Positions 24,800 through 53,395 of a stretch of 64,000 bases of DNA are shown here, in pieces. The DNA is from an archaeon. GTDB lineage: Archaea; Iainarchaeota; Iainarchaeia; Iainarchaeales; JAAZKV01. Position 1 is the first letter of the stretch. Each line of letters begins with the position of its first letter. Position numbers and translations under genes: made by a program. The notes beneath the pieces are model-generated. The model had not been told where the DNA came from and ran no database searches. It saw nothing but the letters and a program-made list of their open reading frames with translations. Location: the NCBI GenBank assembly GCA_035355675.1, contig DAOQRN010000002.1, forward strand, positions 1,986-65,985. Reading direction: 5' to 3'.

Positions 24800-24891
24800 G
24801 TTAAATTCCTAAAAATGTTAGGTGTTAAAAAAGAATTTTTTGACCTTTGGCATGAAGGTGGGGATTTATTTAAAAAGGAAAAATTACTTTA

Positions 24892-26424: not shown

Positions 26425-26495
26425 ATTTATTAATATCCTTTGGTTACTTTTGACCACCGGCATTGTACTTGTAGAGCCTATTTAAATACCCAAAT

Positions 26496-28010: not shown

Positions 28011-28087
28011 ATTCCTCATTTTTTAGCTCTTTTAGCTACTTTTTTAAACCCTGTCTTGACAATATTTCTTATTGACTTGGTGAGTGT

Positions 28088-28294: not shown

Positions 28295-28313
28295 TTTTTA
28301 AAAATATTTTTGG

Positions 28314-28529: not shown

Positions 28530-28607
28530 TTAAGTTCCTTTTTTTTATTTTTTTCTCATTTGGGTCTTTTATTATTTTATTTTTAATTGGTTCATTTTGT
28601 TTATTAG

Positions 28608-38359: not shown

Positions 38360-39448
38360 TTATTCTAATTTATATCTAAGTATTGCACAAACTCCGCTCA
38401 AGTTTTGAATTATTTTTTCTTGAGGGTTTTTTGAGGATATTACAAATATTTTACATTTTGTTGTTTCTGCAAGATCCATTATTTTTTCTATTTCTTTTCT
38501 TTCTTGCATTAGTGATGTTTCACTAATTAATAATTTTTCAACAGCGCCAAGTTCTAGTGCTTCTATCACTTTATCTTTTCCGTACTCTGTTTTTCCTTTT
38601 GATATTAGGGATAAGAATTCTTCAATTACTTCCCCTTCTTGACTTAATTGTAGTTCTTTTTCGAGGGTTTTTAGTTTTCCTTGGGTTATTAGTTCTTTAA
38701 AACCAGTTTCGCTTATTTCATTTGTTGTTTCAATAAATGCTTGGGGGAATCCTTTTTGTTTTTTTTCTTCATAAAATTTTTTAAAATTCTCTTTAGTGAA
38801 TCCTGGTCCCACTATTAGTATTTTTTTTGGTTCAAGTACAGTTATTTTTTCCATTACTTTTTCAAAGTAATCACTTTTTTCTTCAGCAAATCTTTTTCCA
38901 CTTTTTTTTGACTTTATTTTTGCTTTTTTAATTAATGAAAATTGGTTAACAAAAGCAAGTTCTGCTGACTCATCATCAAGTAAAACAATAAGTAGTTTTG
39001 TTGTTGCGCTTTCTTTTTCAACTTTTTTTAATCTATCAATTTGCCATTCTTTAATTGATTTCTTTTTTATAATTACTTTTTCTCCTTTTTCAAGATCAAT
39101 ACTTTGGTGGCTTTTTAGTTGTATCATTTCTTCTGGTTTTCCACTAATAATAATACCACTTGCTCTAAGATTTTCACTATATTCTTGGAAATGAACTTCT
39201 TTTATCTCAAGTTCAACAAAAATTGTTATTCTTTGTGTTTTTTCTCCTTCTCTCTCTGCTTTTATTTTTCTATCAGTTTTTCCTTTAATAATGTCACCAC
39301 TTTCAATTATTTTTTCAAGATGCCAAAGGTCTTCGCTAGTTTCTGGTATTAAAATAAGTTCATTATATTTTTTATCAATTTTTAGTATTTTCATTTTCTC
39401 ACAACAATTATTTATAATATCTGTTTTCTTTTTTTTGTTCTCTATCAA
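38360..39448 (-). CDS. pelA: Pelota (aPelota/Dom34) ribosome-rescue factor; the true start is probably the second Met (about 39394)
   Basis: MKILKIDKKYNELILIPETSEDLWHLEKIIESGDII matches the Pelota N-terminal domain, followed by an eRF1-like central and C-terminal region. Confidence 0.8.
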   Translation of the reverse strand: MIENKKKKTDIINNCCEKMKILKIDKKYNELILIPETSEDLWHLEKIIESGDIIKGKTDRKIKAEREGEKTQRITIFVELEIKEVHFQEYSENLRASGIIISGKPEEMIQLKSHQSIDLEKGEKVIIKKKSIKEWQIDRLKKVEKESATTKLLIVLLDDESAELAFVNQFSLIKKAKIKSKKSGKRFAEEKSDYFEKVMEKITVLEPKKILIVGPGFTKENFKKFYEEKKQKGFPQAFIETTNEISETGFKELITQGKLKTLEKELQLSQEGEVIEEFLSLISKGKTEYGKDKVIEALELGAVEKLLISETSLMQERKEIEKIMDLAETTKCKIFVISSKNPQEKIIQNLSGVCAILRYKLE

Positions 39449-41171
39449 GTACTGAATCGTGTTTATTTATTCTTGGTCTTTTTGTATCTTTGTCTCTTCT
39501 TACTGTAATGTCTAAATATTTCAACAAGTGGTTCATTCCTTCATTTATCCCAAATGGTCCTGTTGCTTTTCCATTTTTTGTTGGTTCTCCTGTGAAAACC
39601 ATTATTTTGTCACTCACATAATCCATAAATGTTAAATCATGATCAATTATTATTGCTGAACAATTTTTTATATCAATATAATTTCTAATTAGTTTTCCTA
39701 CAGCAAGTCTTTGTTCTACATCTAAATAAGCACTTGGTTCGTCAAGTAAATACACATCAGCTTTTTTGCTTAAACAAATAGCAATGGATAATCTTTGGAA
39801 TTCTCCTCCTGAAAGTGTTTTTGCTTTTTTTTCTAAAAGGGGCTCTAATTCAAGAGGTTTTAATAAATTGTTTCGAACTTCTTCCATGTTTATTCCTTCA
39901 AATAGTTCTTGAACAGTTTTTTCACCAACATAATTGATATATTGTGGTTTGTAAGATATTTTTACTCTTTGTTGAATTTCTGTGTTATCTGCTTTTATTT
40001 CTCCCGCAAGTATTTTCATAAATGTTGTTTTTCCTATTCCATTTGGACCGATTATTCCAACTATTTCATTTTTTTGTATTTTATTTTCTTCTACAGTTAG
40101 TTCAAATTCTCCTAATTTCTTTTTTAGTTCAGGCCACTGAATAATTTTTTCTTTTTTTCCTGTATTTTCAGTTTTTATTGTTGAGTAAAAGTTTATTTGG
40201 TATTCTCTAAATTTATAGTTTTCTTCTTTTGAAAATCCCTCTAAATAATCATTAATCCCTTCTCTTGTTGTTTTTATTTGTGAAACAAATCCATAAACTT
40301 TTGGTTTTCCATAAATTAAGTGTACAAAATCACTTAAATAATCAAGTAAAATAAGGTCGTGTTCTACTACTAATACTGTTGAGTTTTCTGCAAGTTTTCT
40401 AATAAATTTTGCAACTCTTAATCTTTCTCGGATATCCAAAAATGATGTTGGTTCATCAAAAAAATAAACTTCTGCTTTTTTTAGTGCAGTTGCAGCGATT
40501 GCTATTTTTTGGAATTCTCCTCCTGAAAGTTTGGATGAATCTCTATCCAGAATGTTTTCTATTTGTAGTTCTTTTGCGATAACATCAAGTTCTTTTTTTT
40601 CATCAACTTTTAATAATAATTCCCCAACAGTTCCTGTAGGTTTTATTGCTTCAATATTTTGCGGTTTTACAGCAATAGTTATTCCATTGTTGTATACTTT
40701 TTTAAAAAACTCTTGTTCTTTTTTTCCACGGTAATATTCAATTACTTTTTTTTGAGCACTTTCTTTTTCTTCATTTTTTTCACCAAAATTTGGAATAATA
40801 TTTCCTGAAAGTATTTTTGTAATCGTTGTTTTTCCTATTCCATTTCTTCCAACAAGTCCAACTACACTATTTTCTTTTGGTACTGGGAGTCCATGTAACC
40901 TAAAAGTGTTTTTTCCAAAAGAATGGATTGGTTCTCCAAGATTTATCATTACATTAACAATACTTATTGCGCCAAAAGGACATTTATTTTGACAAATTTC
41001 ACAACCTATGCATTGTTCTTCAGAAATTATTGGTTTTTGTAGGTTTTCATGAGTTATGCATTTTTTCCCGGTTCTATTTACTGGGCATACTTTTTCACAT
41101 AAATAGTTTCCACATTTTTCAAAATTACAAACATCATAATTTATTACAGCTATTCTTTTTTTAGAATTCAT
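39408..41171 (-). CDS. abce1: ABCE1 (RNase L inhibitor / Rli1) ribosome-recycling ATPase
   Basis: An N-terminal 2x[4Fe-4S] ferredoxin-like domain (CGNYLCEKVCP...CIGCEICQNKCP), then two ABC cassettes (GLVGRNGIGKTT, LSGGEFQ; GIIGPNGIGKTT, LSGGEFQ). Confidence 0.9.
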   Translation of the reverse strand: MNSKKRIAVINYDVCNFEKCGNYLCEKVCPVNRTGKKCITHENLQKPIISEEQCIGCEICQNKCPFGAISIVNVMINLGEPIHSFGKNTFRLHGLPVPKENSVVGLVGRNGIGKTTITKILSGNIIPNFGEKNEEKESAQKKVIEYYRGKKEQEFFKKVYNNGITIAVKPQNIEAIKPTGTVGELLLKVDEKKELDVIAKELQIENILDRDSSKLSGGEFQKIAIAATALKKAEVYFFDEPTSFLDIRERLRVAKFIRKLAENSTVLVVEHDLILLDYLSDFVHLIYGKPKVYGFVSQIKTTREGINDYLEGFSKEENYKFREYQINFYSTIKTENTGKKEKIIQWPELKKKLGEFELTVEENKIQKNEIVGIIGPNGIGKTTFMKILAGEIKADNTEIQQRVKISYKPQYINYVGEKTVQELFEGINMEEVRNNLLKPLELEPLLEKKAKTLSGGEFQRLSIAICLSKKADVYLLDEPSAYLDVEQRLAVGKLIRNYIDIKNCSAIIIDHDLTFMDYVSDKIMVFTGEPTKNGKATGPFGINEGMNHLLKYLDITVRRDKDTKRPRINKHDSVLDREQKKENRYYK

Positions 41172-41244: not shown

Positions 41245-41658
41245 TCATTTTAAAGGATTACCTTTGATAATAATGGTTTTTAGAAAATTATTATAATAAT
41301 TTTTTGTTCCAGTATTTATTAAAGTGGTACAATTTAAGTCATGTGTAATTTGATTAAGATCGTTAGTTTGAATTACTTTCCAATTATCAGTAGTGCATTT
41401 TGTTTGATTAAAAGTTTTATTAAAAATTTGATTTGCAGTGCTATTAAAATCCCTAATTATTTTTCTGTGTTCTGCATTCCAGTTATAGTACCATGCTTTT
41501 TCATTTAATGTGATTGTATAATTATTTAATTTTATTGCGTCTTCATAATAATAATTGTAAATACCATTTTCTTGTGTTTCTTGATTATTTTCAGAAATCA
41601 AAAATATGCTTATTATTGAAATTAATATTACCATAATTATGGTTGCGTATCCTTTCAT
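41245..41658 (-). CDS. Pilin-like or pilus-associated small protein with an N-terminal hydrophobic segment
   Basis: 137 aa. The N-terminus MKG|YATIIMVILISIISIFLI is class III-like. The body has many NxT/S sequons. It is first in a four-gene operon with overlapping stops and starts. Confidence 0.45.
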   Translation of the reverse strand: MKGYATIIMVILISIISIFLISENNQETQENGIYNYYYEDAIKLNNYTITLNEKAWYYNWNAEHRKIIRDFNSTANQIFNKTFNQTKCTTDNWKVIQTNDLNQITHDLNCTTLINTGTKNYYNNFLKTIIIKGNPLK

Positions 41659-41915
41659 TTTATTTCCTCACAATATTTTTTAAGATCCAAATTTCCACTA
41701 ATAAAATTAATATCCAAATAGTCTTTACAATAAGAATGATTTTCAGTTATTGTTGAGTTTTCATTTGTATAAATTGTACTACCATAATTTATATTTACCA
41801 AAGAAATATTTGAGGTTTTTGGGGGTGTATCATTATTTACTTGTAAAAATAAGAATACTAATAAGATTGAAACTACTAATAAAGCCTCAATTGTGAAAAT
41901 AAATCCTTTTTTCAT
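41655..41915 (-). CDS. Pilin-like protein (class III signal peptide)
   Basis: 86 aa, MKKG|FIFTIEALLVVSILLVFLF. Confidence 0.5.
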   Translation of the reverse strand: MKKGFIFTIEALLVVSILLVFLFLQVNNDTPPKTSNISLVNINYGSTIYTNENSTITENHSYCKDYLDINFISGNLDLKKYCEEIK

Positions 41916-42409
41916 TTTCCCACCTTTAAAATTATTTTTTCTTTAGTTAAAAAATTTTTAAAGCAATTATTATTTAAGCAATTTGTAAGATCCATGTTAA
42001 TATAATCTGTACTTTTTTCACAAGTCATTATTTCTGTTTCAATAGCAAAAATATTTTTTTTATCAATTAGTTGTGGGGTATAATTTTTATTATTTACAAT
42101 AAGTTCTAAATCATAATTTAATAATCCAATTTCTTCTTTAATATTAGTTTTTTGTAATAATTTTCTTTTATCAATAGTGTTTTTTAGAGTTGTTCCATTT
42201 AGTTCACAATTGTATTGTGTGTTTGCAAGTAATATCATTAATGAACTATTTAAAGAATCTTCCATGTTTTTTTTCTCAATATATTCTTTAGTGTTATAAT
42301 TGTTTAGTTCGCTTGTTTGAATTATCATTCCAATTATTAGAATTACTAAAATCATGGACATTAAAAAATCTAATGAAAATATTTGTCCTTTTGGATTTAT
42401 TTTAAACAT
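41912..42409 (-). CDS. Pilin-like protein (class III signal peptide)
   Basis: 165 aa, MFKINPKGQ|IFSLDFLMSMILVILIIG. Confidence 0.55.
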   Translation of the reverse strand: MFKINPKGQIFSLDFLMSMILVILIIGMIIQTSELNNYNTKEYIEKKNMEDSLNSSLMILLANTQYNCELNGTTLKNTIDKRKLLQKTNIKEEIGLLNYDLELIVNNKNYTPQLIDKKNIFAIETEIMTCEKSTDYINMDLTNCLNNNCFKNFLTKEKIILKVGK

Positions 42410-42797
42410 TTCTTATCACCATATCATTTTCGATTTTTTCAATTATTAAATTTTTTGGAATTTTTGAAGAGTGTGTGCTTTTTATATTTTTTCCAGTTAA
42501 ATTTTCACTAATTTCAAAAGTATTTTCATCGATAATTGTAAAATTTGGAGTGAATGTTGTATTTTTATAAATTACTTTTCTTAAAGTTATTTTTGAATAA
42601 AAATTTGTGTCACTTAAAGTTTGAGCAGTGTTTATTAATAAACTAATTTCATTACCTTGTTCTTTTAATTGATTTTGTAAAAAAATATCTTCTTGAGTTT
42701 CTTTGATATCATTCCCAATTAGGGATAAACCACTTAATGCAACAAATATTGCAAGGATAGTTATTAATAAATCAAGGCTTATTTGTCCATTTTTCAT
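42402..42797 (-). CDS. Pilin-like protein (class III signal peptide)
   Basis: 131 aa, MKNGQ|ISLDLLITILAIFVALSG. Confidence 0.55.
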   Translation of the reverse strand: MKNGQISLDLLITILAIFVALSGLSLIGNDIKETQEDIFLQNQLKEQGNEISLLINTAQTLSDTNFYSKITLRKVIYKNTTFTPNFTIIDENTFEISENLTGKNIKSTHSSKIPKNLIIEKIENDMVIRNV

Positions 42798-42851
42798 GTT
42801 TATTTATTAGTTTTTTATATTTTTAATTGTGTCTTTTTTGTTTTTTATTTA

Positions 42852-43271
42852 TTATTCAATTAAAACTATTTTAATTTCTTCCCCTTTTTCATTATAAAAT
42901 TTTATGTTTTCTAATTTAAAACTATTATCAATTATTCCATTTATGGAGTAATTTTGAAAAAATTTTTTATCTTCTTTACTTGGGTGATTTTCTCCTAAGG
43001 GGTGGGAGTGGATTGTTCCAACAATTTTATTGTCAAACGGAATTATTAAAGAATTTATTTCTACAAATGTTTCTCCTGCAATATTTGGTAAATATACAAT
43101 TTGATCAATTATTTCATTATTTTTTGATAAAAAAATTAACATTTCTTTTGGAAAATTATTTTTTGCAGAATTGCAAATTTCTTGAAGTAGTTGTTTTTTT
43201 ATTTTAAACATAATTATATTAGTATGAATAAGTAAAAAAATAGAGTGGGTATAATTAGCGAGTTCATACAT
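42852..43271 (-). CDS. JAB/MPN (JAMM) domain metalloprotease; the likely start is the internal Met at about 43211
   Basis: Full JAMM motif: an upstream Glu (FPKEMLIFL), then H-S-H-P-L-G-E-N-H-P-S-K-E-D, i.e. HxHx7Sx2D. Confidence 0.7.
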   Translation of the reverse strand: MYELANYTHSIFLLIHTNIIMFKIKKQLLQEICNSAKNNFPKEMLIFLSKNNEIIDQIVYLPNIAGETFVEINSLIIPFDNKIVGTIHSHPLGENHPSKEDKKFFQNYSINGIIDNSFKLENIKFYNEKGEEIKIVLIE

Positions 43272-44374
43272 AGACTTCTTTTAACTTTTTTACTTATTGT
43301 AAATAATCCAAGGCTTGTTGAAAAAATAAGGGTTATTATTCCAAGAATTCCACCAGTTATTATTGTTGCAAAAATCATGATTAAAAGACTGATTATGTTT
43401 AATTTTCTAGTTAAATTTTCATTAAAAAAGTTTATCATTATTTTTGATAATTGGATTGTTGCAAATCCCCCAATTCCTGCAGAAATTACCATTATTATAA
43501 TTCCAAGAATCATTGTTTCTTGGGTTAATGTAATTTTATCTTGTAGAAAAATCATTGCCCCGTTTCTTGTTTTTTTTAATGCGAATAGAGTAATAAATCC
43601 AAAGAAAAAATTTGCTGTATTTATGCTTCCAAGCATTGTTAAGTAGTTTTTTTCTTGAATTTTTAGTTTAAAAGTTTTAATTATTGTTGCTGCAGTGTTA
43701 CTTCCAATACCTGGGATTATTGCAACAATTGTTCCCCCAATTAGTCCCAGTATTGGATCAGTTATTTTATTTTCAATATTTATTTCAGTATTTTGTTTTT
43801 TTATTATATTTTTTTCTTTTAATGAATACAATGTTGCGCTTACTCCAAAATATCCTGTAATTAGTGCAAATATTTGTCCACTAAATATCAATCCTTGTGT
43901 TGTTGCAATAAAGATTATAAAAATTGATATTATTTTTTTCCTAAAAGATTTTTCTTGTTGTATCATTATTATGGGGGTTAGGAGTAATATTATTGGAGTA
44001 ATTAAAATTATTTCTCTTTGATTTTGTTCAAGTAATAAAAATATTATTGGGGTTATTAGAACTCCCACAATTGTTGCTATTATTCCTCCAAATACTGTTA
44101 GAGTTATTGCGTTAATTCCTTCGCCTTGAATTAACATTTTGTGGGCGGGTAATACTCCTTCAAATGTTGTGGTTGAGGGCACCCCTAAAAATGTTGATGG
44201 GATAAATTCCACAAAGGTTTGAACTATTGACATACTTAGGACCAAAACCATTATTTCTTTTCCAAAAATTGGGCTTATTGCGATTAAAGCGATTATTGTG
44301 TTTGTGTGTAGGCCTGGGGTTAATCCAGCAATTATTCCAAATATTGATCCAAGGATTAGGTAAAAAATAATCAT
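43214..44374 (-). CDS. TctA-like (DUF112) polytopic membrane protein
   Basis: 386 aa with about 10 TM helices and two repeat halves carrying the motifs GLTPGLHTNT and IPGIGSNTAATI (TctA-type G-x-PG). Confidence 0.5.
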   Translation of the reverse strand: MIIFYLILGSIFGIIAGLTPGLHTNTIIALIAISPIFGKEIMVLVLSMSIVQTFVEFIPSTFLGVPSTTTFEGVLPAHKMLIQGEGINAITLTVFGGIIATIVGVLITPIIFLLLEQNQREIILITPIILLLTPIIMIQQEKSFRKKIISIFIIFIATTQGLIFSGQIFALITGYFGVSATLYSLKEKNIIKKQNTEINIENKITDPILGLIGGTIVAIIPGIGSNTAATIIKTFKLKIQEKNYLTMLGSINTANFFFGFITLFALKKTRNGAMIFLQDKITLTQETMILGIIIMVISAGIGGFATIQLSKIMINFFNENLTRKLNIISLLIMIFATIITGGILGIITLIFSTSLGLFTISKKVKRSLCMNSLIIPTLFFYLFILI

Positions 44375-44700
44375 ATTTCTTTTATCACCTTGTATGCATA
44401 AAAGTTATTTTCTTTTTCTTTTTCGACATAGGCTGTGATAAAATCATTTTTTTGGATAGTAGTTTCTTTGGGGTAGTAGATTGTGGCTTTACTTCCATCA
44501 TTAAGAATTAGTATTGTTGAGGGGAAGTTTTTTACTACATATTCTACTTTTCCACTTATTATTCCTTTTGTAATTTTTTCATTATTAATTAATTCTTGGA
44601 TTGTTATTTTTTCAAATTCTTCTTTATAGAAAACTAAAAATCCAATAAATCCTATTAAAATAATTATCAAACAAATTTGTGAAATTTGTGTGTCGTTCAT
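44371..44700 (-). CDS. Small membrane-anchored protein, function unknown
   Basis: 109 aa with an N-terminal TM helix. It overlaps the upstream gene by 4 nt. Confidence 0.35.
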   Translation of the reverse strand: MNDTQISQICLIIILIGFIGFLVFYKEEFEKITIQELINNEKITKGIISGKVEYVVKNFPSTILILNDGSKATIYYPKETTIQKNDFITAYVEKEKENNFYAYKVIKEI

Positions 44701-44789
44701 ATTTTTTTGTTTTTTTAAAAGAATATAAACCCCAGTATTTTTTCGTTATTTGTCGTATTATTTTTGTGGGTTAAGTGTTGATTGTTTTT

Positions 44790-45146
44790 TTAAATTTTTC
44801 TTATTGTTATATTGAGTTGGACATTGTTAAGTTTTAAGTTTTCAACCATTTTTTGTTTAAATTTTGTTAAAAATTCAACGTTGTTTATTATTTTATTAGT
44901 TTCAATTGGGTCTTCAGTTAATATAACTAAATTTATTTTATTTAGGTTATTACTTTTTTCCAAAGTGATGCTTTCAATATAACTTGTAGAAGTTGTTTCA
45001 TTTAGTTTTTCAATAAATTCATTTTTTGTAAATATTATCAGGTTTGTATTTTCGGTTGTTTGAAAATAGAGGGATGTAATATAAATTGAAGCACTTAATA
45101 CAATAAGTGAAATAAATAATAATTCAAATGTTACTTGTCCTTTCAC
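44790..45146 (-). CDS. Pilin-like protein (class III signal peptide)
   Basis: 118 aa, MKGQ|VTFELLFISLIVLSASIYI. Confidence 0.55.
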   Translation of the reverse strand: MKGQVTFELLFISLIVLSASIYITSLYFQTTENTNLIIFTKNEFIEKLNETTSTSYIESITLEKSNNLNKINLVILTEDPIETNKIINNVEFLTKFKQKMVENLKLNNVQLNITIRKI

Positions 45147-45160
45147 TTAAATCATCCTTT

Positions 45161-45601
45161 TTAATTTATTATTATGTTGTTATCAATTTTTTGTAAAATT
45201 ATTGTTTGATTTTGAGTTAGTTCATTTTTTAGACATTTAAGGTCAGGGTTAACAAAATAGTTTTTGTCACATATGTCATTTGGACAATTTTTTGTTTCTG
45301 GATTATTTTTATTTTCATTTATTTTCACACTAAAACCAATATTTCCATCATTATAACAATATATTTTTCCATTTTCGGGTATTCTCAAAATTATTGTTTC
45401 TTTTGATCCATTACTAAAATTATTTAATCTGTTAATTCCTTGCATAATTTTCATACACTCATTATCTGTTTGTGTTAAATTTCTTATATCTGTTACTGAA
45501 GATTGAGCACTTTTTATCATGGGGTAGGTTACTGAAACAATATAAGTTATTATTAGCACAATTATTATTAGAAATTCTATTGAGGTTTGTCCTTTTTTCA
45601 T
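45161..45601 (-). CDS. Pilin-like protein (class III signal peptide)
   Basis: 146 aa, MKKGQ|TSIEFLIIIVLIITYIV. The body is Cys/Asn-rich. Confidence 0.55.
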   Translation of the reverse strand: MKKGQTSIEFLIIIVLIITYIVSVTYPMIKSAQSSVTDIRNLTQTDNECMKIMQGINRLNNFSNGSKETIILRIPENGKIYCYNDGNIGFSVKINENKNNPETKNCPNDICDKNYFVNPDLKCLKNELTQNQTIILQKIDNNIIIN

Positions 45602-45605
45602 TTTT

Positions 45606-46685
45606 TCACCAAATTAGTATCCAAGCGTCACCAATGATTAAACAAAGTAAATACCCTATTAGCATTGTAGGAACAAAGGGCATTGATTCTTTTATTTTTA
45701 TGGTTTCGCCTATTTTTTTATTTTTGTATAATTTTTTAAGTAATTTTATTTCTTCTTCATTGAGGCCCCTAGCTTTAGTTGCAGAAATGATTTCATTTTT
45801 TTTTGAAAAAATTTCATTAATTTTATTTTCTTTTACAAGTTTTATTATTTGTTTAATTGAAAAATTTTGTTCTTTTACTTGATTTTTTTCAAAATATAAT
45901 GTTTTTGATGGTATCATTCCTTCTTTTAATTTACTAATTTTTACTGTTGTTTGAAGAACGGGTCCAAGGGATAACATTAGTTTTATTGTTCCATAAATAA
46001 ATATTATAAATATAAAACTTGTTAAGGTATTTTGTAAGGTTTGAAGCGGCAATATAATTAACCCAATAATAGAAATTAAAATTGTGATTATAATTTTTCC
46101 TTTTTTTAAAATTCCTATTAGTATTAATGTGGGAAGTATAATTAGTGATGGGATTTGTAGAAAATAAAAAATTGTTGATAATCCTCCAATTAGTATTGAT
46201 AAAATTATTCCATCAATTACTCTTTTTTTAGCGTCTTTTATTAAATTATTTCTTGCTTCTTTATTATTTTTTAATTTTAATAAAATAACAAGCATTGCAT
46301 ATGGTAAAAATCCAATTAGAGAATAAATAAATAAGGTTATTGCAAAGATTTGAAAATTAGAGTTTGTAAATTCTCCTATTTTTAATATTGCGGGCGTGAA
46401 TGGATTTAGTGCCCCTAGTGCCATGAATAATTTAACATCTCCTCCAGCAAATACTCCTATTTTCCAAAGAATCCATCCAAAAGTAAACCCTATTATTAAT
46501 CCAAGTAATGAAAATATTATTGGTAGTGGGGTTTGTTCGAAATAAGATTGAATTAAATAAATAATTAACCCAATTATTGCTAAAGAAAAGTTTAATTTGT
46601 TTGAAACAATTCTTTCTTTTAAATCAGTGTATGTTGCTATTAGTAATCCTATTATTGAAATAATTATTGTTAAGTAAAAATACAT
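45606..46685 (-). CDS. Prepilin peptidase (A24-family aspartic protease, PibD/FlaK/TadV-like) with a C-terminal extension
   Basis: Polytopic membrane protein with the first catalytic Asp in YTDLKERIVS and the second in FAGGDVKLFMALGA. Confidence 0.75.
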   Translation of the reverse strand: MYFYLTIIISIIGLLIATYTDLKERIVSNKLNFSLAIIGLIIYLIQSYFEQTPLPIIFSLLGLIIGFTFGWILWKIGVFAGGDVKLFMALGALNPFTPAILKIGEFTNSNFQIFAITLFIYSLIGFLPYAMLVILLKLKNNKEARNNLIKDAKKRVIDGIILSILIGGLSTIFYFLQIPSLIILPTLILIGILKKGKIIITILISIIGLIILPLQTLQNTLTSFIFIIFIYGTIKLMLSLGPVLQTTVKISKLKEGMIPSKTLYFEKNQVKEQNFSIKQIIKLVKENKINEIFSKKNEIISATKARGLNEEEIKLLKKLYKNKKIGETIKIKESMPFVPTMLIGYLLCLIIGDAWILIW

Positions 46686-46744
46686 TGTTTATCAGAAGTT
46701 TAATGGATTTTCTTGATTAAAATACTTTTTGTTTAATTATTTTT

Positions 46745-46924
46745 TTATTTTTGCATTATTTGTTCTATTGTTTGGGTTCTTATTGTTAGTATTTCTGCTT
46801 GTGCTTCAAGTGCAAGTTGTCTTAGTGTTTCAACAATTAATGCAGTGCTTATTGCAAGTGAAATAACAAAAACAGCGGTCAGTAAATATTCAAAACTTAC
46901 TTGTGCTTTTTCTTCTTGTAACAT
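46745..46924 (-). CDS. Small Flp-like pilin (59 aa), not in the ORF track
   Basis: Manual translation: MLQEEKAQ|VSFEYLLTAVFVISLAISTALIVETLRQLALEAQAEILTIRTQTIEQIMQK. The N-terminus is class III, similar to the QGAIEYLL pilins. Coordinates are +/-1. Confidence 0.5.
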   Translation of the reverse strand: MLQEEKAQVSFEYLLTAVFVISLAISTALIVETLRQLALEAQAEILTIRTQTIEQIMQK

Positions 46925-46928
46925 TTTT

Positions 46929-47276
46929 TCACTCCCATTTTAGTAATGGATCATTTTCATATTTTGGATCAAGTTTTCCTGGACAAATGCTGTTTGATTT
47001 TTTTGCAAAAACAAATTCTCCACTTGAAAGCATTTCTCCTCTATCAGATTTTTTTAAATAACATCCACACAATAGACTGTTTGTGTCAAGCCCGCCTTTT
47101 GATTTTGGTCCACAAAGGTAATCATAAGTGTTTCTATTTCCTGAATCAATTGTTGGTCCTAGTACTCCTGTCATATATGATACTACTACTGCGATTACAA
47201 TAATTGCAGCTCCTAATAATAACAAGTATTCTATTGCTCCCTGTCCTTTTTTTTCAAAAAAATTCATTCTAATCAC
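46929..47276 (-). CDS. Type IV pilin (DUF361-type class III signal peptide)
   Basis: MIRMNFFEKKGQ|GAIEYLLLLGAAIIVIAVVVSYMTGVLG, followed by a Cys-containing globular domain. Confidence 0.7.
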   Translation of the reverse strand: MIRMNFFEKKGQGAIEYLLLLGAAIIVIAVVVSYMTGVLGPTIDSGNRNTYDYLCGPKSKGGLDTNSLLCGCYLKKSDRGEMLSSGEFVFAKKSNSICPGKLDPKYENDPLLKWE

Positions 47277-47334
47277 TATTATGTAAATGTTTTTTTAGTA
47301 TTTAAAGTTAAGTAGTTTGATTAAAAAAGAAGTT

Positions 47335-47357
47335 GAAAAGGCATTTTTTGCCTTTTC
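47335..47357 (-). terminator. Perfect 9-bp hairpin GAAAAGGCA-TTTTT-TGCCTTTTC immediately downstream of the 72-aa pilin gene, followed by a T-run on the transcribed strand
   Basis: The inverted repeat is seen directly. On the minus strand it is followed by CAACTTCTTTTTT. Confidence 0.45.
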
Positions 47358-47376
47358 AAAAAATTAAATGTTTTAA

Positions 47377-47595
47377 TTATGGTTCTTCTGTTGGTGCTAC
47401 ATACCCTGGACATCCTTCTACTGTGTTGTCTCTTAGGCAGTTTAGATCATTCATTTCATTATTATAGTCACCTGTACTTACATCATCTTGTGAACTAAGT
47501 ACTCCTGTTAGTGCTACTATTACAACAGCAACTACAAGTATTGCAGCTCCAATTATTAGTAAGTATTCTATTGCTCCTTGTGCTCTTTCTTCCAT
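47377..47595 (-). CDS. Short type IV pilin (72 aa); candidate major pilin
   Basis: MEERAQ|GAIEYLLIIGAAILVVAVVIVALTGVLSS, with a very short C-terminal domain (two Cys) and a strong downstream terminator hairpin. Confidence 0.7.
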   Translation of the reverse strand: MEERAQGAIEYLLIIGAAILVVAVVIVALTGVLSSQDDVSTGDYNNEMNDLNCLRDNTVEGCPGYVAPTEEP

Positions 47596-47649
47596 TGTTT
47601 TCCCTCCATTTTTAGTAAAAATAACTTATCTTATAAGGTTTTTCTCATT

Positions 47650-47797
47650 TTTAAGGGTTTTGTTTTTGTTGTGTTTGGGTAGTTTCACTAATTGTGCTTG
47701 CAGTATTTTTCATAAATAAAGCAACTGCGGTTGCAATTACAACAACAAATAATAATCCTAAAATTACTTCAAATTGTGCTTGTGCTCTTTCTTCCAT
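47650..47797 (-). pseudogene. Pilin paralog with an apparent frameshift in an A5 homopolymer
   Basis: The ATG sits directly after the TadC-like stop. Frame 1 reads MEERAQAQFEVIF then junk to a stop. Frame -1 after the A-run would read ...LGLLFVVVIATAVALFMKNTASTISETTQTQQKQNP, a complete pilin. Confidence 0.4.
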
Positions 47798-48715
47798 CTA
47801 CATTGCCCCCATTAAAAATATTTTTAGTATAATTACTGATATATAATATACAATAAAAGCTGTTAATAATAGTATTGGGATGTAGATTATTGCTTTGTTA
47901 GGTTTTCCATCACGTATTAGTGCCATTATTGTTCCGCTTCCAATAACTTCAATTATTAAGTATCCTTGAGTGATTATTAGAATAAGATCACTGTTTGTTT
48001 TTGTTTGTATTGCTTGTGCGGCATTAATTTGGGTACTTAGCACTGTTGAAAACATTCCCATTATTGCAGTGATTTCTCCAAATATTATTGGTGCAATTAT
48101 TCCTCCTGCAGCTATCATAAATAAAAATTGCATTTGGGTGTTAGATTTTCTTTCTTCTTTTAATTTGTGCATGTCTCTTACATCTTCTGAAATGTCATCA
48201 AGTACTTCTGCAAGACTTGCTCCGGTTTTTATTGAATCAAGAATTATTGTTATTGTTCTCCGCACTAACTTTGAGTCAATTCTTTCAGAAAATCCTCTAA
48301 GCGAACTATCAATATTTGTTCCTTCTTCAAGTCTTCTTAAACTAATTTCCATTTCTTCAGATAGTCTTCCATAATCTGCATTTGCTACTTCTCTTAATGC
48401 ACTTTCATAAGTATCTCCTGCTTTAAGTGTGTCAGCCATTTGTTTTAGTGCATCACTAAAGTTTGATTCAATTGAATCAATTATTGTTTCTTTTTTCATG
48501 TAGGGATAACCCAAACTTAGAACGAGTGTTGCAATTGCAAATGCTATTGGCAATAAATTTGCCTCTTTAATAAAAAAGGAACTTATAATTAATACTAAAA
48601 TGAATATTATGATTGTTGAAATTAAGGATAAAGTTATCCATTTTTTTGCATCATATTGTAGTCGGCAAAACTTTAATATGATTTCATAATCTTCAATCAA
48701 TTTTTTTATTTCCAT
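47798..48715 (-). CDS. TadC/FlaJ-like pilus assembly membrane protein (T2SS-F domain)
   Basis: 305 aa with an N-terminal cytoplasmic domain then TM helices. The cytoplasmic GDTYESALREVANADYGRLSEEMEISLRRLEEGTNIDSSLRGF matches the T2SSF/TadC pattern. Confidence 0.7.
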   Translation of the reverse strand: MEIKKLIEDYEIILKFCRLQYDAKKWITLSLISTIIIFILVLIISSFFIKEANLLPIAFAIATLVLSLGYPYMKKETIIDSIESNFSDALKQMADTLKAGDTYESALREVANADYGRLSEEMEISLRRLEEGTNIDSSLRGFSERIDSKLVRRTITIILDSIKTGASLAEVLDDISEDVRDMHKLKEERKSNTQMQFLFMIAAGGIIAPIIFGEITAIMGMFSTVLSTQINAAQAIQTKTNSDLILIITQGYLIIEVIGSGTIMALIRDGKPNKAIIYIPILLLTAFIVYYISVIILKIFLMGAM

Positions 48716-48732
48716 TTTTTATCACTACTTTT

Positions 48733-49833
48733 TTATATTTGTGGTTGCATTTTGTATACCATATAATTCATAAATATAAAAATCATTGGCATTATTATAA
48801 AATAAATTATTAACAAAACATCTATTGTTAGGGGAACTGATTTGAATAATTCTTTACCTGTTGTTGCAAGCGGGGAGTTTCTTATTGATCCAAGAATTAA
48901 TATTGATACTGGTAAAATTATTCCTAAAAATATAAAAATGACTGCAAAAAAATTCATGCTTTGTGAGAAAGAACTTATTTTATTTTTTAAATCATTTGTA
49001 ACATCTTTTGCAATATCATTCATTACTTCTGAAAGGTTTCCTCCAATTCTCATAGCTCTTAATATGTGGTTTATTGTTGTTTTTAGTGGTCTTAACTGGG
49101 TTCTTAGAGATAAGTGTTTTAAAGCAATATTTGTGTCAGTTCCTTCTTCTATTTCATTAATTGTTTTTGAAAATTCTTCACTTAGTACTCCATAATCATT
49201 TGAAGCAATCGCTTGCATTGCTTTGTAAAGTCCAATTCCTGATTTTAATTCAGTTGCCATATGTCTTAAAGCAAAAGGGAGTTCTGTTGAACATAAATTT
49301 CCTCTTTCTATTGCTTTACTTTTTGGTAATTGTATTATTATTATTGTGGAAATTAAAGTTCCAAATACCCCAAATATTGGGGGTAATAAGGCAATGAGTG
49401 CAAGATTTCTAGTAAAAATTGAAATTAATAATCCAATAATTACTGAAAACAATCCTATTACTAGTCCTGCTGTTGTTGATAGTGCTAAGTATTGATTTGC
49501 TGAGTATTGCATATTTGCTGAGTATAAATAAAATCCTAGTTCTTGTGTCATTGGAAAATTTTTAAAATAATTTTGTAAAGGTTTTATTACATTTTTTATT
49601 TTTAAGTAGAGTGATCCTATTTGTTTTGTTAGGTCTGAACCAAATTCTTCTACGTCTTCTTGTGTATCAATATCAATTTTTGCATAAGTGTCTTCTGCAA
49701 TGATTCCTCTCATTTCTTTAAGGCTAGTATTTACTTCATCAATTACGAGTCCCTCTTCTCGGTATTTTTTTTTCATTGTTTCAACTATTTTAGTAACTTC
49801 GTTTTCATCTATTGATAAGGTTTCACTACTCAT
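48733..49833 (-). CDS. TadB/FlaJ-like pilus assembly membrane protein (T2SS-F domain)
   Basis: 366 aa. GIGLYKAMQAIASNDYGVLSEEFSKTINEIEEGTDTNIALKHL matches the T2SSF cytoplasmic domain and TM helices flank it. Confidence 0.7.
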   Translation of the reverse strand: MSSETLSIDENEVTKIVETMKKKYREEGLVIDEVNTSLKEMRGIIAEDTYAKIDIDTQEDVEEFGSDLTKQIGSLYLKIKNVIKPLQNYFKNFPMTQELGFYLYSANMQYSANQYLALSTTAGLVIGLFSVIIGLLISIFTRNLALIALLPPIFGVFGTLISTIIIIQLPKSKAIERGNLCSTELPFALRHMATELKSGIGLYKAMQAIASNDYGVLSEEFSKTINEIEEGTDTNIALKHLSLRTQLRPLKTTINHILRAMRIGGNLSEVMNDIAKDVTNDLKNKISSFSQSMNFFAVIFIFLGIILPVSILILGSIRNSPLATTGKELFKSVPLTIDVLLIIYFIIMPMIFIFMNYMVYKMQPQI

Positions 49834-51512
49834 TGTGTGTCACCAATTTTTCTTCTTTGTTCTAAAAATAATTTTGCTTCTTTTGAAACTTGTTTTATTT
49901 CTCTAGTATTTTTTTCTAAAAGTTTTTCTAAAAATTGTTTTCTTATTTCAATTTCTGCATATATTTGTTCTCTTGATAGTCCTGTAAAGTTTTGTAAATT
50001 TTTTAAGTATTGGCTTTCAAGTATTGTTCGTTCGATTCTATCTTTTGCAGGGTCTCTTTGGAATATTGTTTGTGTTTTTGGTTTTCCATCGAGTGCGCCA
50101 TATATTTCTGCGATTTCAGTTATTCTTCTTATAGTTCCTTTTTTTCTATCATAATATCTGTGTTCAACAATAATTATGTCTAGTCCTGATAACATTACTT
50201 CTGGAACATTCATTGGGGGTGTTGTTACTCTTATGATTGTTTCTTGTGGACTATTTGCGTGTACTGTTCCTAAACATCCATCGTGTCCTGTGTTTATTGC
50301 AGTGAATAAAGTGAATGCTTCTTCATGTCTTATTTCTCCAACAATTATTCTATCGGGTCTCATTCTTAAAGAATTTTTTGTTAAAATATCTAATTTTAGT
50401 TCTCCTGTTCCTTCTATTCCTGGAGGTCTTGCTTCAAGTCTTATCCAATGGTTTGTTGGAATATTTATTTCAGCAGTGTCTTCGATTGTGATTATTCTTT
50501 CTCTGTCTGGAATTAATGCTGCAAGTACATTTAGTAGTGTTGTTTTTCCTGACCCTGTTCCTCCCGCAATTAACATATTTGCTGGTTTTGTATTCATTCC
50601 TTCTACACATAACCAAAGGAATGCAGCCACTTCGCTTGAAACAGTATTCATTTTTATTAAGTCAATTATTGAATATGGGTCTTCTCTAAATTTTCTAATA
50701 GTTAGTGTTCCTCCACTTATACTTGCTGGGGGAATTGTTGCATTTACTCTTGAACCATCAGTCAATCTTGCATCAAGTAATGGTGAAGATACATCAACTC
50801 TTCTTCCAATTTCTCTTGCAATTCTATTAATTAGATCTTCAATTTCTTGTTCTGAAAAAAATTCAATATTTGTTTGCATCATTTCATAGTCTCTGTGAAA
50901 TACAAAAACTGGTTTTTTCGCACCAATTATCATTATTTCTTCTAAATTATCATCTTTAATTAATTCATCGATTAATCCATACCCTACCATTTCTCTAACA
51001 ACAGCTTCTGCATAGAATAGTGTTTTACTTTCTGGAATTCTTAAACTTGGGTTGTTTTGAATTATTTCTATTACTTTTTGTTTGTAAATTATTCTTTTTT
51101 CTTCTTGGTTCCTTATTTTATATGGAGCAATACTAACGAGTCTTGTTGTCGCTTCTTTTATTGTGTTAATTATTTTTCTTTCAATTGCAGTTGGTCTTAT
51201 TGTTGGGACGTAATAGTAGTTTAGTGGTTTTCCTGGAATTTTATATATTTTTACTTTCCCATAACTTGATAGTTCAATTTTTTTTTCTTGTTCAAGTTCT
51301 TTTTCAAATTCATTTTGTTCTGATGATGGTTCAATAACTATGTCCCCTTCAATTTTTTTCATTTCTTCTTTTGTTACTGTTTTTGCCAGTTCTTCTTCTT
51401 TTTCTTCAGGTTTATTTTGTATTAGCGTATCAATTTTTTGTTCAGTGTTTGTTGTTTCTTTTTTTGCTTCTTTCATTAATTCAGCAAGATAGTCTGTAGT
51501 CATTTTAATCAC
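49830..51512 (-). CDS. Type IV pilus assembly ATPase (FlaI/TadA/VirB11 family)
   Basis: Walker A MLIAGGTGSGKTTLLN, Asp box TIEDTAE, Walker B/His box RIIVGEIRHEEAFTLFTAINTGHDGCLGTVHANS. It overlaps the TadB-like gene by 4 nt. Confidence 0.9.
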   Translation of the reverse strand: MIKMTTDYLAELMKEAKKETTNTEQKIDTLIQNKPEEKEEELAKTVTKEEMKKIEGDIVIEPSSEQNEFEKELEQEKKIELSSYGKVKIYKIPGKPLNYYYVPTIRPTAIERKIINTIKEATTRLVSIAPYKIRNQEEKRIIYKQKVIEIIQNNPSLRIPESKTLFYAEAVVREMVGYGLIDELIKDDNLEEIMIIGAKKPVFVFHRDYEMMQTNIEFFSEQEIEDLINRIAREIGRRVDVSSPLLDARLTDGSRVNATIPPASISGGTLTIRKFREDPYSIIDLIKMNTVSSEVAAFLWLCVEGMNTKPANMLIAGGTGSGKTTLLNVLAALIPDRERIITIEDTAEINIPTNHWIRLEARPPGIEGTGELKLDILTKNSLRMRPDRIIVGEIRHEEAFTLFTAINTGHDGCLGTVHANSPQETIIRVTTPPMNVPEVMLSGLDIIIVEHRYYDRKKGTIRRITEIAEIYGALDGKPKTQTIFQRDPAKDRIERTILESQYLKNLQNFTGLSREQIYAEIEIRKQFLEKLLEKNTREIKQVSKEAKLFLEQRRKIGDTQ

Positions 51513-51637: not shown

Positions 51638-53395
51638 TTATTTTTTCTCTTTGATTTCTTTTTTAATTTTTTCAATAAATTCTTCTATTTTTAGTATTTC
51701 TTGTTCTCCAACTCGCGGTCTTACTGCGACTTTTCCTTCTGTTTCTTCTTTTGCTCCAACAACAATTATGTAGGGTACTTTTTCTTTTTGAGCGTCTCGT
51801 ATTCTATATCCTAGTGTTTCGTTTCTATCATCAATTTTCACTCTTATTTCATTTTCAAGTAATTCTTTTTTTACTTTATTAGCATAATCATTAAATTTTT
51901 CTGATATGGAAATTATTCTTACTTGTTCTGGCGATAACCATGTTGGGAATGCTCCTTTGTATTTTTCAATAAGCATTGCCATTGTTCTTTCATAGCATCC
52001 AATTGATGAACGGTGTATTATATATGGCCTCTTTTTTTGTCCGTCGCTATCCACATAGGTCATATCAAATCTTTCTGGCAAAGCAAAATCAATTTGTACT
52101 GTAATTAGTGTGTCTTCTTTTCCATAAACATTTTTTGTTTGCAAGTCTAGTTTTGGTCCGTAGAATGCTGCTTCTCCTTCTGCTTCAACATATTTTATTC
52201 CTAAGTGATCTAATATTTTTTTCATTTCATTTTGAGAGTGTTTCCATGCATCAGGGTTATCAATATATTTTCCTTTTTTGTTTTCAGGGTCCCATTTTGA
52301 GAATCTATAAGTAATATCTTCTCTTATTCCAAGAGTGTCCATTACATAATTAATTAAATTAATTACTTCTTTGAATTCGTTTTCTAGTTGTTCTGGAGTC
52401 ACTATAATGTGTCCTTCTGATAGAGTGAATTGTCTTACTCTAGTTAATCCATGCATTTCTCCTGATGATTCATTTCTAAATAGTACTGAAGTTTCCGCAT
52501 ATTTTATTGGTAGGTCTTTGTATGATTTTAATCCATTTTTATAAATTAAGAATTGATAGGGACAAGTCATTGGTCTTAGGGCCATTACTTCTCCTGGATT
52601 TTTTTCATCTCCAAGCATGAACATTCCGTCTTTGTAGTGCTCCCAGTGTCCTGACACTTTATATAAATCGCTTTTCGCCATGTATGGAGTTCTAGTGTAA
52701 ACATATCCTCTTTTTTCTTCTTCATCTTCAATAAATCTTGTTAGTATTTGGAATAATTTTGCTCCTTTTGGCATTAGTAATGGTAATCCTTGTCCGATTA
52801 GTTCATGTGTCATGAACAAATTTTGTTCTCTCCCAATTTTGTTGTGGTCTGAGCTTTCTGCTTCGTCTCTAAGTTTTATCCAGTTATCAAGTTCTTGTTG
52901 TGTTTTAAATGCGATTCCATATACTCTTTGTAATTGTTTGTTTTTTTCGTTTCCTTTCCAGTATGCTGAACTCATTTTTAGTAATTTTATTGCACCAATT
53001 TCACTAGTACTTTCTAGATGTGGGCCTTTGCACATGTCTAAAAAATTCCCTGTTTTGTATGTTGAAATTTCTTTTTCTCCACTTGTTTTTAAATCATTAA
53101 TTAGTTCCACTTTGTATGAATTATTTTTAAATACTTCAAGTGCTTCATTAATTGGGATAATTTTTTGTTCCATTATTTCTTTTCTTGATAAAATTTCTTT
53201 CATTTTTTCTTCAACTTTTTCAAGATCTTTTTCATTTAAATTTTTGTCTAGTTCAAAATCATAATGAAACCCCATTTCAATTGGTGGTCCTATAGCAATT
53301 TTCACATTTGGGTAAATTTCCGTTAGTGCTGAAGCGAATACGTGTGCAGCAGTATGCCACATTTTTTCATTTCTTATTGCTTCTTCATTACTCAT
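51638..53395 (-). CDS. thrS: Threonyl-tRNA synthetase (lacking an N-terminal TGS domain)
   Basis: SAD-like N-terminus (WHTAAHVFASAL...GFHYDF), DHNKIGREQNLFMTHE...GLPLLMPKGA, class II motif 2 LFRNESSGEMHGLTRVRQFT, and a C-terminal anticodon-binding domain. Confidence 0.8.
   Translation of the reverse strand: MSNEEAIRNEKMWHTAAHVFASALTEIYPNVKIAIGPPIEMGFHYDFELDKNLNEKDLEKVEEKMKEILSRKEIMEQKIIPINEALEVFKNNSYKVELINDLKTSGEKEISTYKTGNFLDMCKGPHLESTSEIGAIKLLKMSSAYWKGNEKNKQLQRVYGIAFKTQQELDNWIKLRDEAESSDHNKIGREQNLFMTHELIGQGLPLLMPKGAKLFQILTRFIEDEEEKRGYVYTRTPYMAKSDLYKVSGHWEHYKDGMFMLGDEKNPGEVMALRPMTCPYQFLIYKNGLKSYKDLPIKYAETSVLFRNESSGEMHGLTRVRQFTLSEGHIIVTPEQLENEFKEVINLINYVMDTLGIREDITYRFSKWDPENKKGKYIDNPDAWKHSQNEMKKILDHLGIKYVEAEGEAAFYGPKLDLQTKNVYGKEDTLITVQIDFALPERFDMTYVDSDGQKKRPYIIHRSSIGCYERTMAMLIEKYKGAFPTWLSPEQVRIISISEKFNDYANKVKKELLENEIRVKIDDRNETLGYRIRDAQKEKVPYIIVVGAKEETEGKVAVRPRVGEQEILKIEEFIEKIKKEIKEKK

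Follow-up and report, generated by a model that had tools for sequence, protein, structure and literature searches.

Which kind of type IV pilus is encoded by a locus that harbors genes for a membrane-anchored OB-fold protein, a TctA-like membrane protein and a JAMM metalloprotease among its pilin genes, and what might such a pilus be used for? The question is raised by a 64,000-nucleotide stretch of an archaeal contig (DAOQRN010000002.1, positions 1,986 to 65,985 of the forward strand, assembly GCA_035355675.1, Iainarchaeota; hereafter the window), which carries a locus of this composition on its minus strand. In our judgment the pilus is very probably of the archaeal Epd-like kind ("system 1", Tad-related), and the locus as a whole is tentatively read, at chances somewhat short of even, as an Epd-like pilus together with a module that couples it to DNA uptake. 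The stable linkage of an Epd-like pilus with OB-fold, TctA-like and JAMM genes is, as far as the literature searched goes, new, whereas the pilus itself is of an already known kind, type IV pili including two-platform "system 1" loci having already been reported for DPANN archaea (2026 preprint).

The passage of DNA across the archaeal membrane is an open question because archaea have no ComEC, and the only prior lead is genetic and comes from Methanococcus. A genomic association in a distant phylum is independent of this lead and supports it, and with its few genes the locus furthermore lends itself to biochemical and heterologous tests. If DNA uptake were confirmed, natural competence could open DPANN archaea to genetic manipulation, as it has for the bacterial CPR/Saccharibacteria.

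Organization of the locus and its assembly machinery

According to the list of open reading frames (ORFs), the locus is a minus-strand run of 17 tightly packed ORFs, all in one orientation, which extends from 51512 down to 41245 and is bordered by the genes for ThrRS (51638..53395) on one side and ABCE1 (39408..41171) on the other. A single minus-strand cluster in this place had been proposed by an initial annotation of the DNA and is recovered here, but the 20 genes counted in that annotation are unsupported, because the same 17 are predicted by independent gene callers both on contigs identical to that of the window (two JGI metagenomes and one ENA assembly, L001-L003) and in a relative with 87% ATPase identity (L004). 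Intergenic distances range from -58 to +100 nucleotides with overlaps at six gene junctions, and the GC content of about 23-30% over the region is like that of the rest of the window. The order of the 17 genes is kept in relatives with 72-87% ATPase identity and essentially also in L037 (~65%), and a core order of ATPase, first platform gene, second platform gene, pilin, A24 peptidase and 146-residue pilin-like protein (p146) is shared with loci from Methanobacteriota and Hadarchaeota. The arrangement of ThrRS, pilus locus and ABCE1 is likewise kept in most Iainarchaeota-type loci (L004-L054), where gene order is unusually stable. In L017, L037, L059, L064 and L071 a phosphoglycerate-mutase-like gene (~505 codons) is found between the JAMM/JAB gene and the four minor-pilin genes that follow it, and unrelated housekeeping genes can therefore sit within the cluster.

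The ATPase (49830..51512, minus strand) is a pilus assembly ATPase of the CpaF/TadA/EpdL type, as the initial annotation had also recognized in calling it FlaI/TadA-type, and comprises 557-560 residues, the longer form starting at a GTG and the shorter one at the ATG at 51503 used by other callers. It matches Pfam T2SSE at 1.3e-43. Both Walker motifs (A, GGTGSGKTT; B, RPDRIIVGEIR) are found in it, as is a His box (TGHDGCLGTVHA). Among solved structures the best match is CpaF (256 bits), followed by Archaeoglobus GspE 2OAP (241 bits) and FlaI (203 bits), and three NCBIfam models are matched below their cut-offs, the top score being that of FlaI (292 bits, cut-off 550), with TadA TIGR03819 at 248 bits (cut-off 373) and the bindosome model BasE at 181 bits (cut-off 1000). 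The protein is 100% identical to a database entry named 'CpaF family protein [archaeon]'. In a comparison by similarity scores and identities, it is 57-87% identical to counterparts in Iainarchaeota, 45-52% to those of Methanobacteriota, Hadarchaeota and Hydrothermarchaeota, 35-41% to that of Methanothermococcus and 34% to Blastopirellula CpaF. Inteins are present in many orthologs (L031-L036, L042-L045, L051, L054, L055; P0060, P0063, P0064), as judged from PF14890 in precomputed domains and from split tblastn matches near query residues ~348 and ~414; the window copy has none. Elsewhere in the window (33307..34848, plus strand) an orphan second T2SSE-family ATPase of 513 residues is encoded (Pfam 7.8e-33), which is 37% identical to the locus ATPase and scores 236 bits with the FlaI and 177 bits with the TadA model, both under cut-off. 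It sits between the genes for CCA-adding enzyme and TYW3, no platform or pilin gene adjoins it, and it could be a second motor, serving for instance in retraction.

Two separate platform genes follow the ATPase gene, as stated in the initial annotation, and each contains a single PF00482 stretch. Platform protein 1 (48733..49833, minus strand; 366 residues, T2SSF 7.8e-21) is TadB-like, and the start of its gene overlaps the ATPase stop by 4 nucleotides. Platform protein 2 (47798..48715, minus strand; 305 residues, T2SSF 3.8e-17) is TadC-like; with 85.8 bits, under the cut-off of 400, it also matches the ArlJ/FlaJ model over the C-terminal half of the latter. In L044, L045 and L055 the best matches correspond one-to-one, the first platform gene pairing with protein 1 and the second with protein 2. 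The initial annotation had proposed to ask whether the two halves side with bacteria or with archaea, and in contrast to its leaning the scores favor the archaeal loci, being 45-135 bits against counterparts from Methanobacteriota, Hadarchaeota and Methanothermococcus and 19-40 bits against Blastopirellula TadB/TadC.

The A24 prepilin peptidase noted in the initial annotation is found at 45606..46685 (minus strand), with matches to Peptidase_A24 (1.1e-15) and to the archaeal C-terminal domains Arc_PepC (8.9e-13) and Arc_PepC_II (1.6e-6), and candidates for the catalytic aspartates are present within YTDLKER and FAGGDVKLF. The NCBIfam EppA model aligns along its full length (residues 5-351), yet with only 46 bits against a cut-off of 450, while the FlaK model covers just the N-terminal part. 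Judged by domain architecture, the peptidase may thus be described as EppA-like.

Assignment to the archaeal Epd-like pili

The Epd-like clade is characterized by a pair of platform genes with one domain each, by major pilins of small size and by a Tad-like gene order, and the bacterial Tad system has been concluded to stem from the transfer of an Epd-like archaeal system (Denise et al. 2019, PMC6668835). Two tadC-like genes occur in many archaeal loci (Makarova et al.), and "system 1" with split platform genes has been described for archaea including DPANN and typically contains many pilin genes (2026 preprint). The locus is assigned to this kind of pilus because the platform is split, the pilins are many, the platform scores lean towards archaea, and secretin, TadZ, archaellin and Fla accessory families are missing. 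Two opinions of the initial annotation are hereby reversed, since the split TadB/TadC arrangement taken there to be bacterial-like is the very feature by which the literature defines the archaeal Epd-like/system 1 pili, and the number of pilins, which had been called unusual, is typical of system 1. Its view of the locus as a Tad-related type IV pilus and not an archaellum is on the other hand well founded.

As for the missing families, no archaellin, FlaF/G/H or secretin family is found among the Pfam-scanned ORFs of the window or in the JGI annotation of the identical contig, in line with what the initial annotation had reported for flaH, flaG, flaF and secretin, and no secretin RcpA/CpaC, TadZ, TadD or TadG family is found in any ORF of the locus. 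A FlaH/MinD/TadZ-like second ATPase family, which is typical but not obligatory for Epd-like systems, is likewise absent from the 17 genes and the scanned window ORFs.

The closest characterized relative in terms of organization is the Epd pilus of Methanococcus maripaludis, which also has a CpaF/TadA-type ATPase, two adjacent single-T2SSF platform genes, an A24 peptidase of its own that carries an archaeal C-terminal domain, pilins in which position +1 is Q and a QxxxE(Y/F) motif is present, a major pilin that is very short and has no globular domain and, like system 1 in general, many additional pilin-like genes. The two nonetheless differ in that the window locus is one 10-kb cluster, whereas the epd/eppA, epdJKL and OB/TctA genes of M. 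maripaludis are found at separate loci, and furthermore in the missing FlaH/MinD/TadZ-like ATPase, in a peptidase far under the EppA cut-off, and in an ATPase whose identity to that of the Methanothermococcus locus amounts to a large divergence.

A recently acquired bacterial Tad locus, or bacterial contamination of the bin, could account for several of these properties, seeing that bacterial CpaF is the best solved relative of the ATPase and lends its name to the NCBI entry, that the order ATPase, TadB-like, TadC-like is the tadA-tadB-tadC order of the Caulobacter Cpa and Aggregatibacter Tad systems, that the short Flp-type pilins share a G/A↓xxxxEY motif with those of Tad (the arrow here and below marking the predicted cleavage site), and that extra pseudopilin-like subunits are comparable to TadE/TadF. 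We nevertheless consider such an origin very improbable. The locus is flanked by housekeeping genes of archaeal type (ABCE1, Pelota, RFC, Nre, S19e, eIF6), the peptidase carries the archaea-specific Arc_PepC domain, the pilins show the archaeal Class_IIIsignal motif, the ATPase and platform proteins are nearer to their archaeal than to their bacterial counterparts, and secretin (RcpA/CpaC), TadZ/CpaE, TadD, TadG and RcpB/C are all lacking from the locus. The published direction of transfer is moreover from Archaea to Bacteria, and the Epd-like system is regarded as an archaeal sister or ancestor of Tad and not as a member of it (Denise et al., PMC6668835). That the locus instead encodes an archaellum for motility is hardly conceivable; many homologs are named 'flagellar protein FlaI' by JGI pipelines and FlaI gives the top NCBIfam score, but this score is far under the FlaI cut-off, the platform is divided over two single-domain genes, and neither the locus nor the scanned window ORFs contain an archaellin or FlaF/G/H/C/D/E/X family. 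The archaeal Epd-like assignment is therefore the one retained.

The OB-fold/TctA/JAMM module

Between two blocks of pilin genes, on the same strand and separated from them by gaps of 54-89 nucleotides, lie three genes of other kinds. The initial annotation had rightly noted an embedded JAB protease and a TctA-like protein, but it missed their OB-fold partner. This first gene of the module (44371..44700, minus strand) encodes a protein of 109 residues (p109) with one N-terminal transmembrane (TM) helix and a 5-stranded barrel, that is, a TM-anchored OB fold of the RPA/Stn1/tRNA_anti type; the p109 clade aligns over its full length with OB-fold relatives (hhalign 96.6%, E 6.8e-10), even if p109 is too diverged to match PF01336 itself. 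Because the protein is a TM-anchored OB-fold protein, it was ruled out as an additional pilin. The stop of its gene overlaps the start of the TctA-like gene (ATGA), indicating translational coupling. The TctA-like protein (43214..44374, minus strand) has 386 residues and ~11-12 membrane helices, matches PF01970 over its full length (3.8e-31, 108.6 bits) and contains the invariant motifs GLxPGLHxN (residues 17-25) and PGIG (221-224). Its AF2 model is confident (pLDDT 88) and all-helical, with no close solved structure, and no TctB or TctC was found in the locus by the Pfam scan. The third gene (42852..43211, minus strand) encodes a stand-alone JAMM/JAB metalloprotease of 119 residues counted from M21, with a Prok-JAB match at 4.4e-7 and an intact HSHx7SxxD motif. 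It matches AfJAMM (AF2198; 1R5X, 1OI0) over its full length at 5.5e-18, and the two are alike in standing alone, in a size of ~120 residues and in the HxHx7SxxD motif.

The module is a stable part of the locus in the lineage. Among the Iainarchaeota-type loci with enough downstream sequence, 24 of 26 have the TctA-like gene 5-8 kb downstream of the ATPase gene, where it is usually preceded by the OB gene and followed by the JAB gene, and the rearranged loci L016 and L021 still keep peptidase, p146, OB and TctA beside the ATPase block. A TctA-centered survey, in which a 5-sequence TctA alignment served as query and 80 metagenome loci of 33-66% identity were covered, revealed an OB gene directly upstream in ~60 of the 80, and the OB/TctA pair is for this reason considered to be old and widespread. 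Full linkage to a pilus with JAB was seen in just 5-7 loci, those closest to Iainarchaeota, and the insertion of the pair into a pilus locus is specific to the Iainarchaeota lineage. Three loci from outside it (L126, L127, L129) have a pilus and TctA near each other but split by unrelated genes, and are too weak to count as independent cases of co-localization. An apparent TctA-JAB fusion of 520 residues in L012 and L035 was rejected, since an in-frame stop separates two genes. In other DPANN archaea the TctA-like gene adjoins replication genes (PolD DP1/DP2, Cdc6, PolB), namely in L057, from a Pacearchaeota metagenome-assembled genome (MAG), and in L058; in L057 an ORF of 120 codons comes before it and overlaps it. 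A literature search gave no paper that connects TctA or JAB with pilus loci of archaea or with DPANN, nor does either occur in the two archaeal pilus censuses and the supplements searched with them.

DNA uptake, adhesion or a surface scaffold

A possible role of the OB/TctA pair is suggested by M. maripaludis JJ, in which transposon and deletion mutants showed that natural transformation depends on the Epd pilus genes and on eppA and equally requires each of the adjacent genes MMJJ_13020, encoding a single-TM OB-fold protein, and MMJJ_13030, encoding an 11-TM TctA-like protein (PMC10133366). A TctA homolog is essential for transformation in Methanoculleus thermophilus as well, and since archaea lack ComEC, the TctA-like protein has been proposed as the missing archaeal DNA transporter (PMC10133366). 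The pair found in the window points to DNA uptake because it belongs to the same families (PF01336-type OB fold and PF01970), is built alike (an OB domain joined to a single TM helix in one protein, ~11 TM helices in the other) and agrees in gene order, the OB gene immediately preceding that for TctA and TctB and TctC being absent; it differs in being located inside the pilus locus and in being followed by a JAMM protease. Taken on its own, a coupling of the pilus to DNA uptake by the OB/TctA/JAMM module is possible, but we would put it below an even chance. A still stronger proposition, that the locus is a first self-contained archaeal "competence operon" in which the Epd-like pilus captures DNA, the OB-fold protein is a DNA receptor at the surface, the TctA-like protein is a translocator of DNA or oligonucleotides and the JAMM protease a processing or regulatory subunit, seems unlikely, although not so unlikely as to be left unmentioned; if it were true, DPANN archaea of the Iainarchaeota lineage would be naturally transformable, and the TctA-like protein would represent a ComEC-independent route of DNA import.

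In the mechanism proposed here, the ten predicted prepilins would enter the membrane by way of their N-terminal helix and the EppA-like A24 peptidase would presumably cut off their leaders of 3-11 residues after a Gly or Ala at position -1. The CpaF/TadA-type ATPase would, via the pair of TadB-/TadC-like platform proteins, polymerise a short Flp-like major pilin, probably the 72-residue protein described below, and the six larger pilin-like proteins, including a coupled block of four, one of them with no acidic residue, would be minor pilins that may form a complex at the tip. The pilus would catch DNA outside the cell, the OB-fold protein would serve as its receptor at the surface in the way that ComEA serves bacteria, and the TctA-like protein would carry either the DNA or products of its degradation through the membrane, so that the locus would constitute a compact DNA-uptake machine also able to mediate adhesion. 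The resemblance to bacterial competence (the ComG pilus operon with its four minor pilins, the DNA receptor ComEA and the channel ComEC) is one of function only and lies in a type IV filament that combines a major pilin with several minor ones, in a nucleic-acid receptor anchored in the membrane and in a polytopic membrane protein; ComEA is a helix-hairpin-helix protein and not an OB fold, ComEC is unrelated to TctA, and the scanned ORFs gave no match to either the ComEC or the ComEA family.

The coupling to DNA uptake has to be weighed against the possibility that the pilus serves only for adhesion or host attachment and that the OB/TctA/JAMM genes are an unrelated unit for uptake of small solutes, for instance carboxylates, which is syntenic by chance. 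This has a substantial chance of being right, if less than an even one, and much of what supports it at the same time speaks against a role in DNA uptake. The sole characterized Epd pilus mediates surface attachment, as does Tad (PMC6668835; 2026 preprint), TctA is a family of secondary transporters for carboxylates, and the archaeal members of arCOG04469 are predicted to be carboxylate transporters (Makarova et al.). The OB ectodomain has a net charge of -5 to +5 and is thus not basic, which says little and is slightly unfavorable to DNA binding, and the model of the TctA-like protein bears no resemblance to ComEC. To our knowledge DNA transport has not been demonstrated biochemically for any TctA-like protein. 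Moreover, the window pair is matched to MMJJ_13020/13030 by Pfam families, architecture and gene order and not by sequence, and the matches listed from profile searches toward the Methanococcus TctA and OB proteins included DPANN proteins only. Outside Iainarchaeota the OB/TctA pair is mostly found alone and usually not beside pilus genes, a pilus core devoid of the module exists in L007 and in non-DPANN loci, and the linkage of pilus and module is probably a single inherited event and not many independent ones. Synteny is in any case weak evidence in this lineage, because ThrRS and ABCE1 are equally stable neighbors and a phosphoglycerate mutase (iPGM) is embedded in the locus of several relatives. 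Finally, Diapherotrites reportedly synthesize nucleotides themselves, so that scavenging becomes a less convincing rationale.

What speaks against a purely adhesive pilus with a chance neighbor, on the other hand, is the position of the module at short distance between two pilin blocks of the same strand and a linkage that survives rearrangement in L016 and L021. The partner of TctA is furthermore an RPA/Stn1-type OB fold and not a TctC-type solute-binding protein, TctB and TctC are missing, and an Epd pilus, a TM-anchored OB protein and a TctA-like protein are jointly required for transformation of Methanococcus (PMC10133366); it should also be mentioned that adhesion and DNA uptake are not mutually exclusive. 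Another conceivable function is that of a bindosome-like or pseudopilus scaffold, a short surface structure that positions binding proteins or exports proteins with no long pilus being formed. The sub-threshold match of the ATPase to BasE, the C-terminal parts of 60-140 residues and unknown fold in six of the ten pilin-like proteins, and the presence of a transporter gene could be taken to suggest this, but no family of solute-binding proteins is found by Pfam in any pilin-like protein, a short Flp-like pilin with promoter- and terminator-like signals of its own is typical of filament-forming Epd and Tad systems, and the nearest relatives of the ATPase and platform proteins are CpaF and Epd-type loci and not Bas of Sulfolobales. 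A scaffold of this type is accordingly improbable, and an Epd-like pilus coupled to DNA uptake remains our preferred, tentative interpretation.

The pilin-like proteins

Ten proteins of the locus begin with a leader of 3-11 residues ending in [KR]-x(0-1)-[GA], followed by Q, F or Y and a hydrophobic helix. The residue after the predicted cleavage site is Q in eight of them and F or Y in the others, and in nine of the ten proteins position +5 or +6 is acidic. The count of at least ten prepilins in the initial annotation therefore agrees with the motif, but just two of the ten exceed the Class_IIIsignal gathering threshold of 23.7 bits, two more fall just below it (20.8 and 21.6 bits), and Pfam gives no match for the other six. 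In orthologous loci the N-terminal motifs are kept family by family while identity in the C-terminal parts goes down to 24-48%, and this conservation of the N-termini against diverging C-termini is good evidence that the proteins are real prepilins, a status that rests on the motif and its conservation.

Four of the proteins are encoded upstream of the peptidase gene. A Flp-like pilin of 48 residues (family a; MEERA↓QAQFEV..., 47651..47797, minus strand) has no Pfam match. It was considered as a frameshifted pilin and ruled out as such, its orthologs being intact at 47-59 residues in all relatives and keeping the N-terminus [EK]E[KR]AQ..E (L004-L009, L037, L059, L064, L071). The frameshifted copy mentioned in the initial annotation was not recovered either, all minus-strand pilin-type motifs being in frame at the N-termini of called ORFs. 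The adjacent gene (47377..47595, minus strand) encodes a short pilin of 72 residues (MEERA↓QGAIEYLL...; mature length ~67 residues), which matches Class_IIIsignal at 25.7 bits. A TATA-like TTATAAGATA box and a GGAGGG ribosome-binding site are found upstream of it, and directly after its stop a hairpin with an 11-bp stem followed by CTTCTTTTTT (47333..47359, minus strand, read from 47359 to 47333) is the strongest terminator-like site in the region, ranking first in a scan that gave seven sites as compared to 2.5 +/- 1.6 in shuffled sequences. A scan for sigma-70 promoters was at chance (73 sites, 68 expected), and the sigma-70 model is not applicable to archaea. These signals fit high expression and make the 72-residue protein a reasonable candidate for the major pilin, as the initial annotation had also suggested from the strong terminator. 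A second pilin with the QGAIEYLL sequence pointed out there is the 115-residue protein of family c (..KKG↓QGAIEYLLLL.., 46929..47276, minus strand; start placed at the ATG 47267 by other callers), which at 31.3 bits is likewise above the Class_IIIsignal threshold. The unlisted Flp-like ORF of 59 residues does exist as well (family d; MLQEEKA↓QVSFEYLL.., 46745..46924, minus strand); it has no Pfam match, but its identity to relatives is 63-89%, none of the other small proteins is as well conserved, and its gene is always directly upstream of that of the peptidase.

The remaining six are the larger proteins with C-terminal parts. The 146-residue p146 (family e; MKKG↓QTSIEF.., 45161..45601, minus strand; Class_IIIsignal 20.8 bits, below threshold) has a conserved N-terminus and always follows the peptidase, also in the Methanobacteriota locus L044, and a 118-residue protein (family f; MKG↓QVTFEL.., 44790..45146, minus strand; 21.6 bits, below threshold) comes next and likewise has orthologs. 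The last four pilin-like genes of the locus form a translationally coupled block of minor-pilin-like proteins. It begins with a 131-residue protein that has no Pfam match (family g; MKNG↓QISLDLL.., 42402..42797, minus strand), in whose orthologs [KR][GA]QISLD is kept, and continues with a 165-residue protein (family h; ..PKG↓QIFSLDFL.., 41912..42409, minus strand), the gene of which overlaps the preceding one by 8 nucleotides and the KGQIFSLDF motif of which is almost invariant across loci. Next follow a protein of 86 residues (family i; MKKG↓FIFTIEAL.., 41655..41915, minus strand) with a conserved [KR]G[FLMI]IF[TS]x[ED] motif and a gene overlap of 4 nucleotides with its predecessor, and one of 137 residues (family j; MKG↓YATII.., 41245..41658, minus strand), in which KG[YF] and the hydrophobic N-terminus are conserved but identity elsewhere is 24-42%. 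The latter has no acidic residue after the cleavage site and is for that reason possibly a tip or cap pilin, by analogy with GspK-type minor pilins.

Outside the locus, beside the genes for S19e and RNase P Rpp21, a stand-alone pilin of 292 residues is encoded at 9611..10489 (minus strand) and matches Class_IIIsignal at 28.5 bits. Its mature N-terminal helix is nearly identical to that of the 72-residue pilin and its C-terminal part of ~250 residues matches no family; a look-up of the exact protein sequence gave no entry, and it may be a trans-encoded subunit or an adhesin of the same pilus.

Host lineage and other genes of the window

The relatives of the ATPase at 57-87% identity come almost exclusively from MAGs named Candidatus Iainarchaeum, Diapherotrites or simply "archaeon", and by these sequence matches the relatives of the locus belong to Candidatus Iainarchaeota (Diapherotrites, DPANN). 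The reduced and probably host-associated lifestyle assumed in the initial annotation is not established, because Diapherotrites are described as being among the metabolically richer and possibly free-living DPANN; type IV pili have been recorded in them. Contigs with the archaeal locus are also found in MAGs labeled Chloroflexota bacterium, Thaumarchaeota archaeon and Izemoplasmatales bacterium (L011, L020, L037; P0065), probably as a result of binning contamination.

Among the other genes of the window is a DNA-end-processing cluster (22978..30656) of NurA, a HAD hydrolase, HerA, an ORF of 504 codons and, on the opposite strand, Rad50. The 504-codon ORF (26496..28010) has no Pfam or NCBIfam match and occupies the place expected for Mre11. 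The window furthermore encodes Hjc at 17760..18158 and an Hjc-related endonuclease at 37969..38328.

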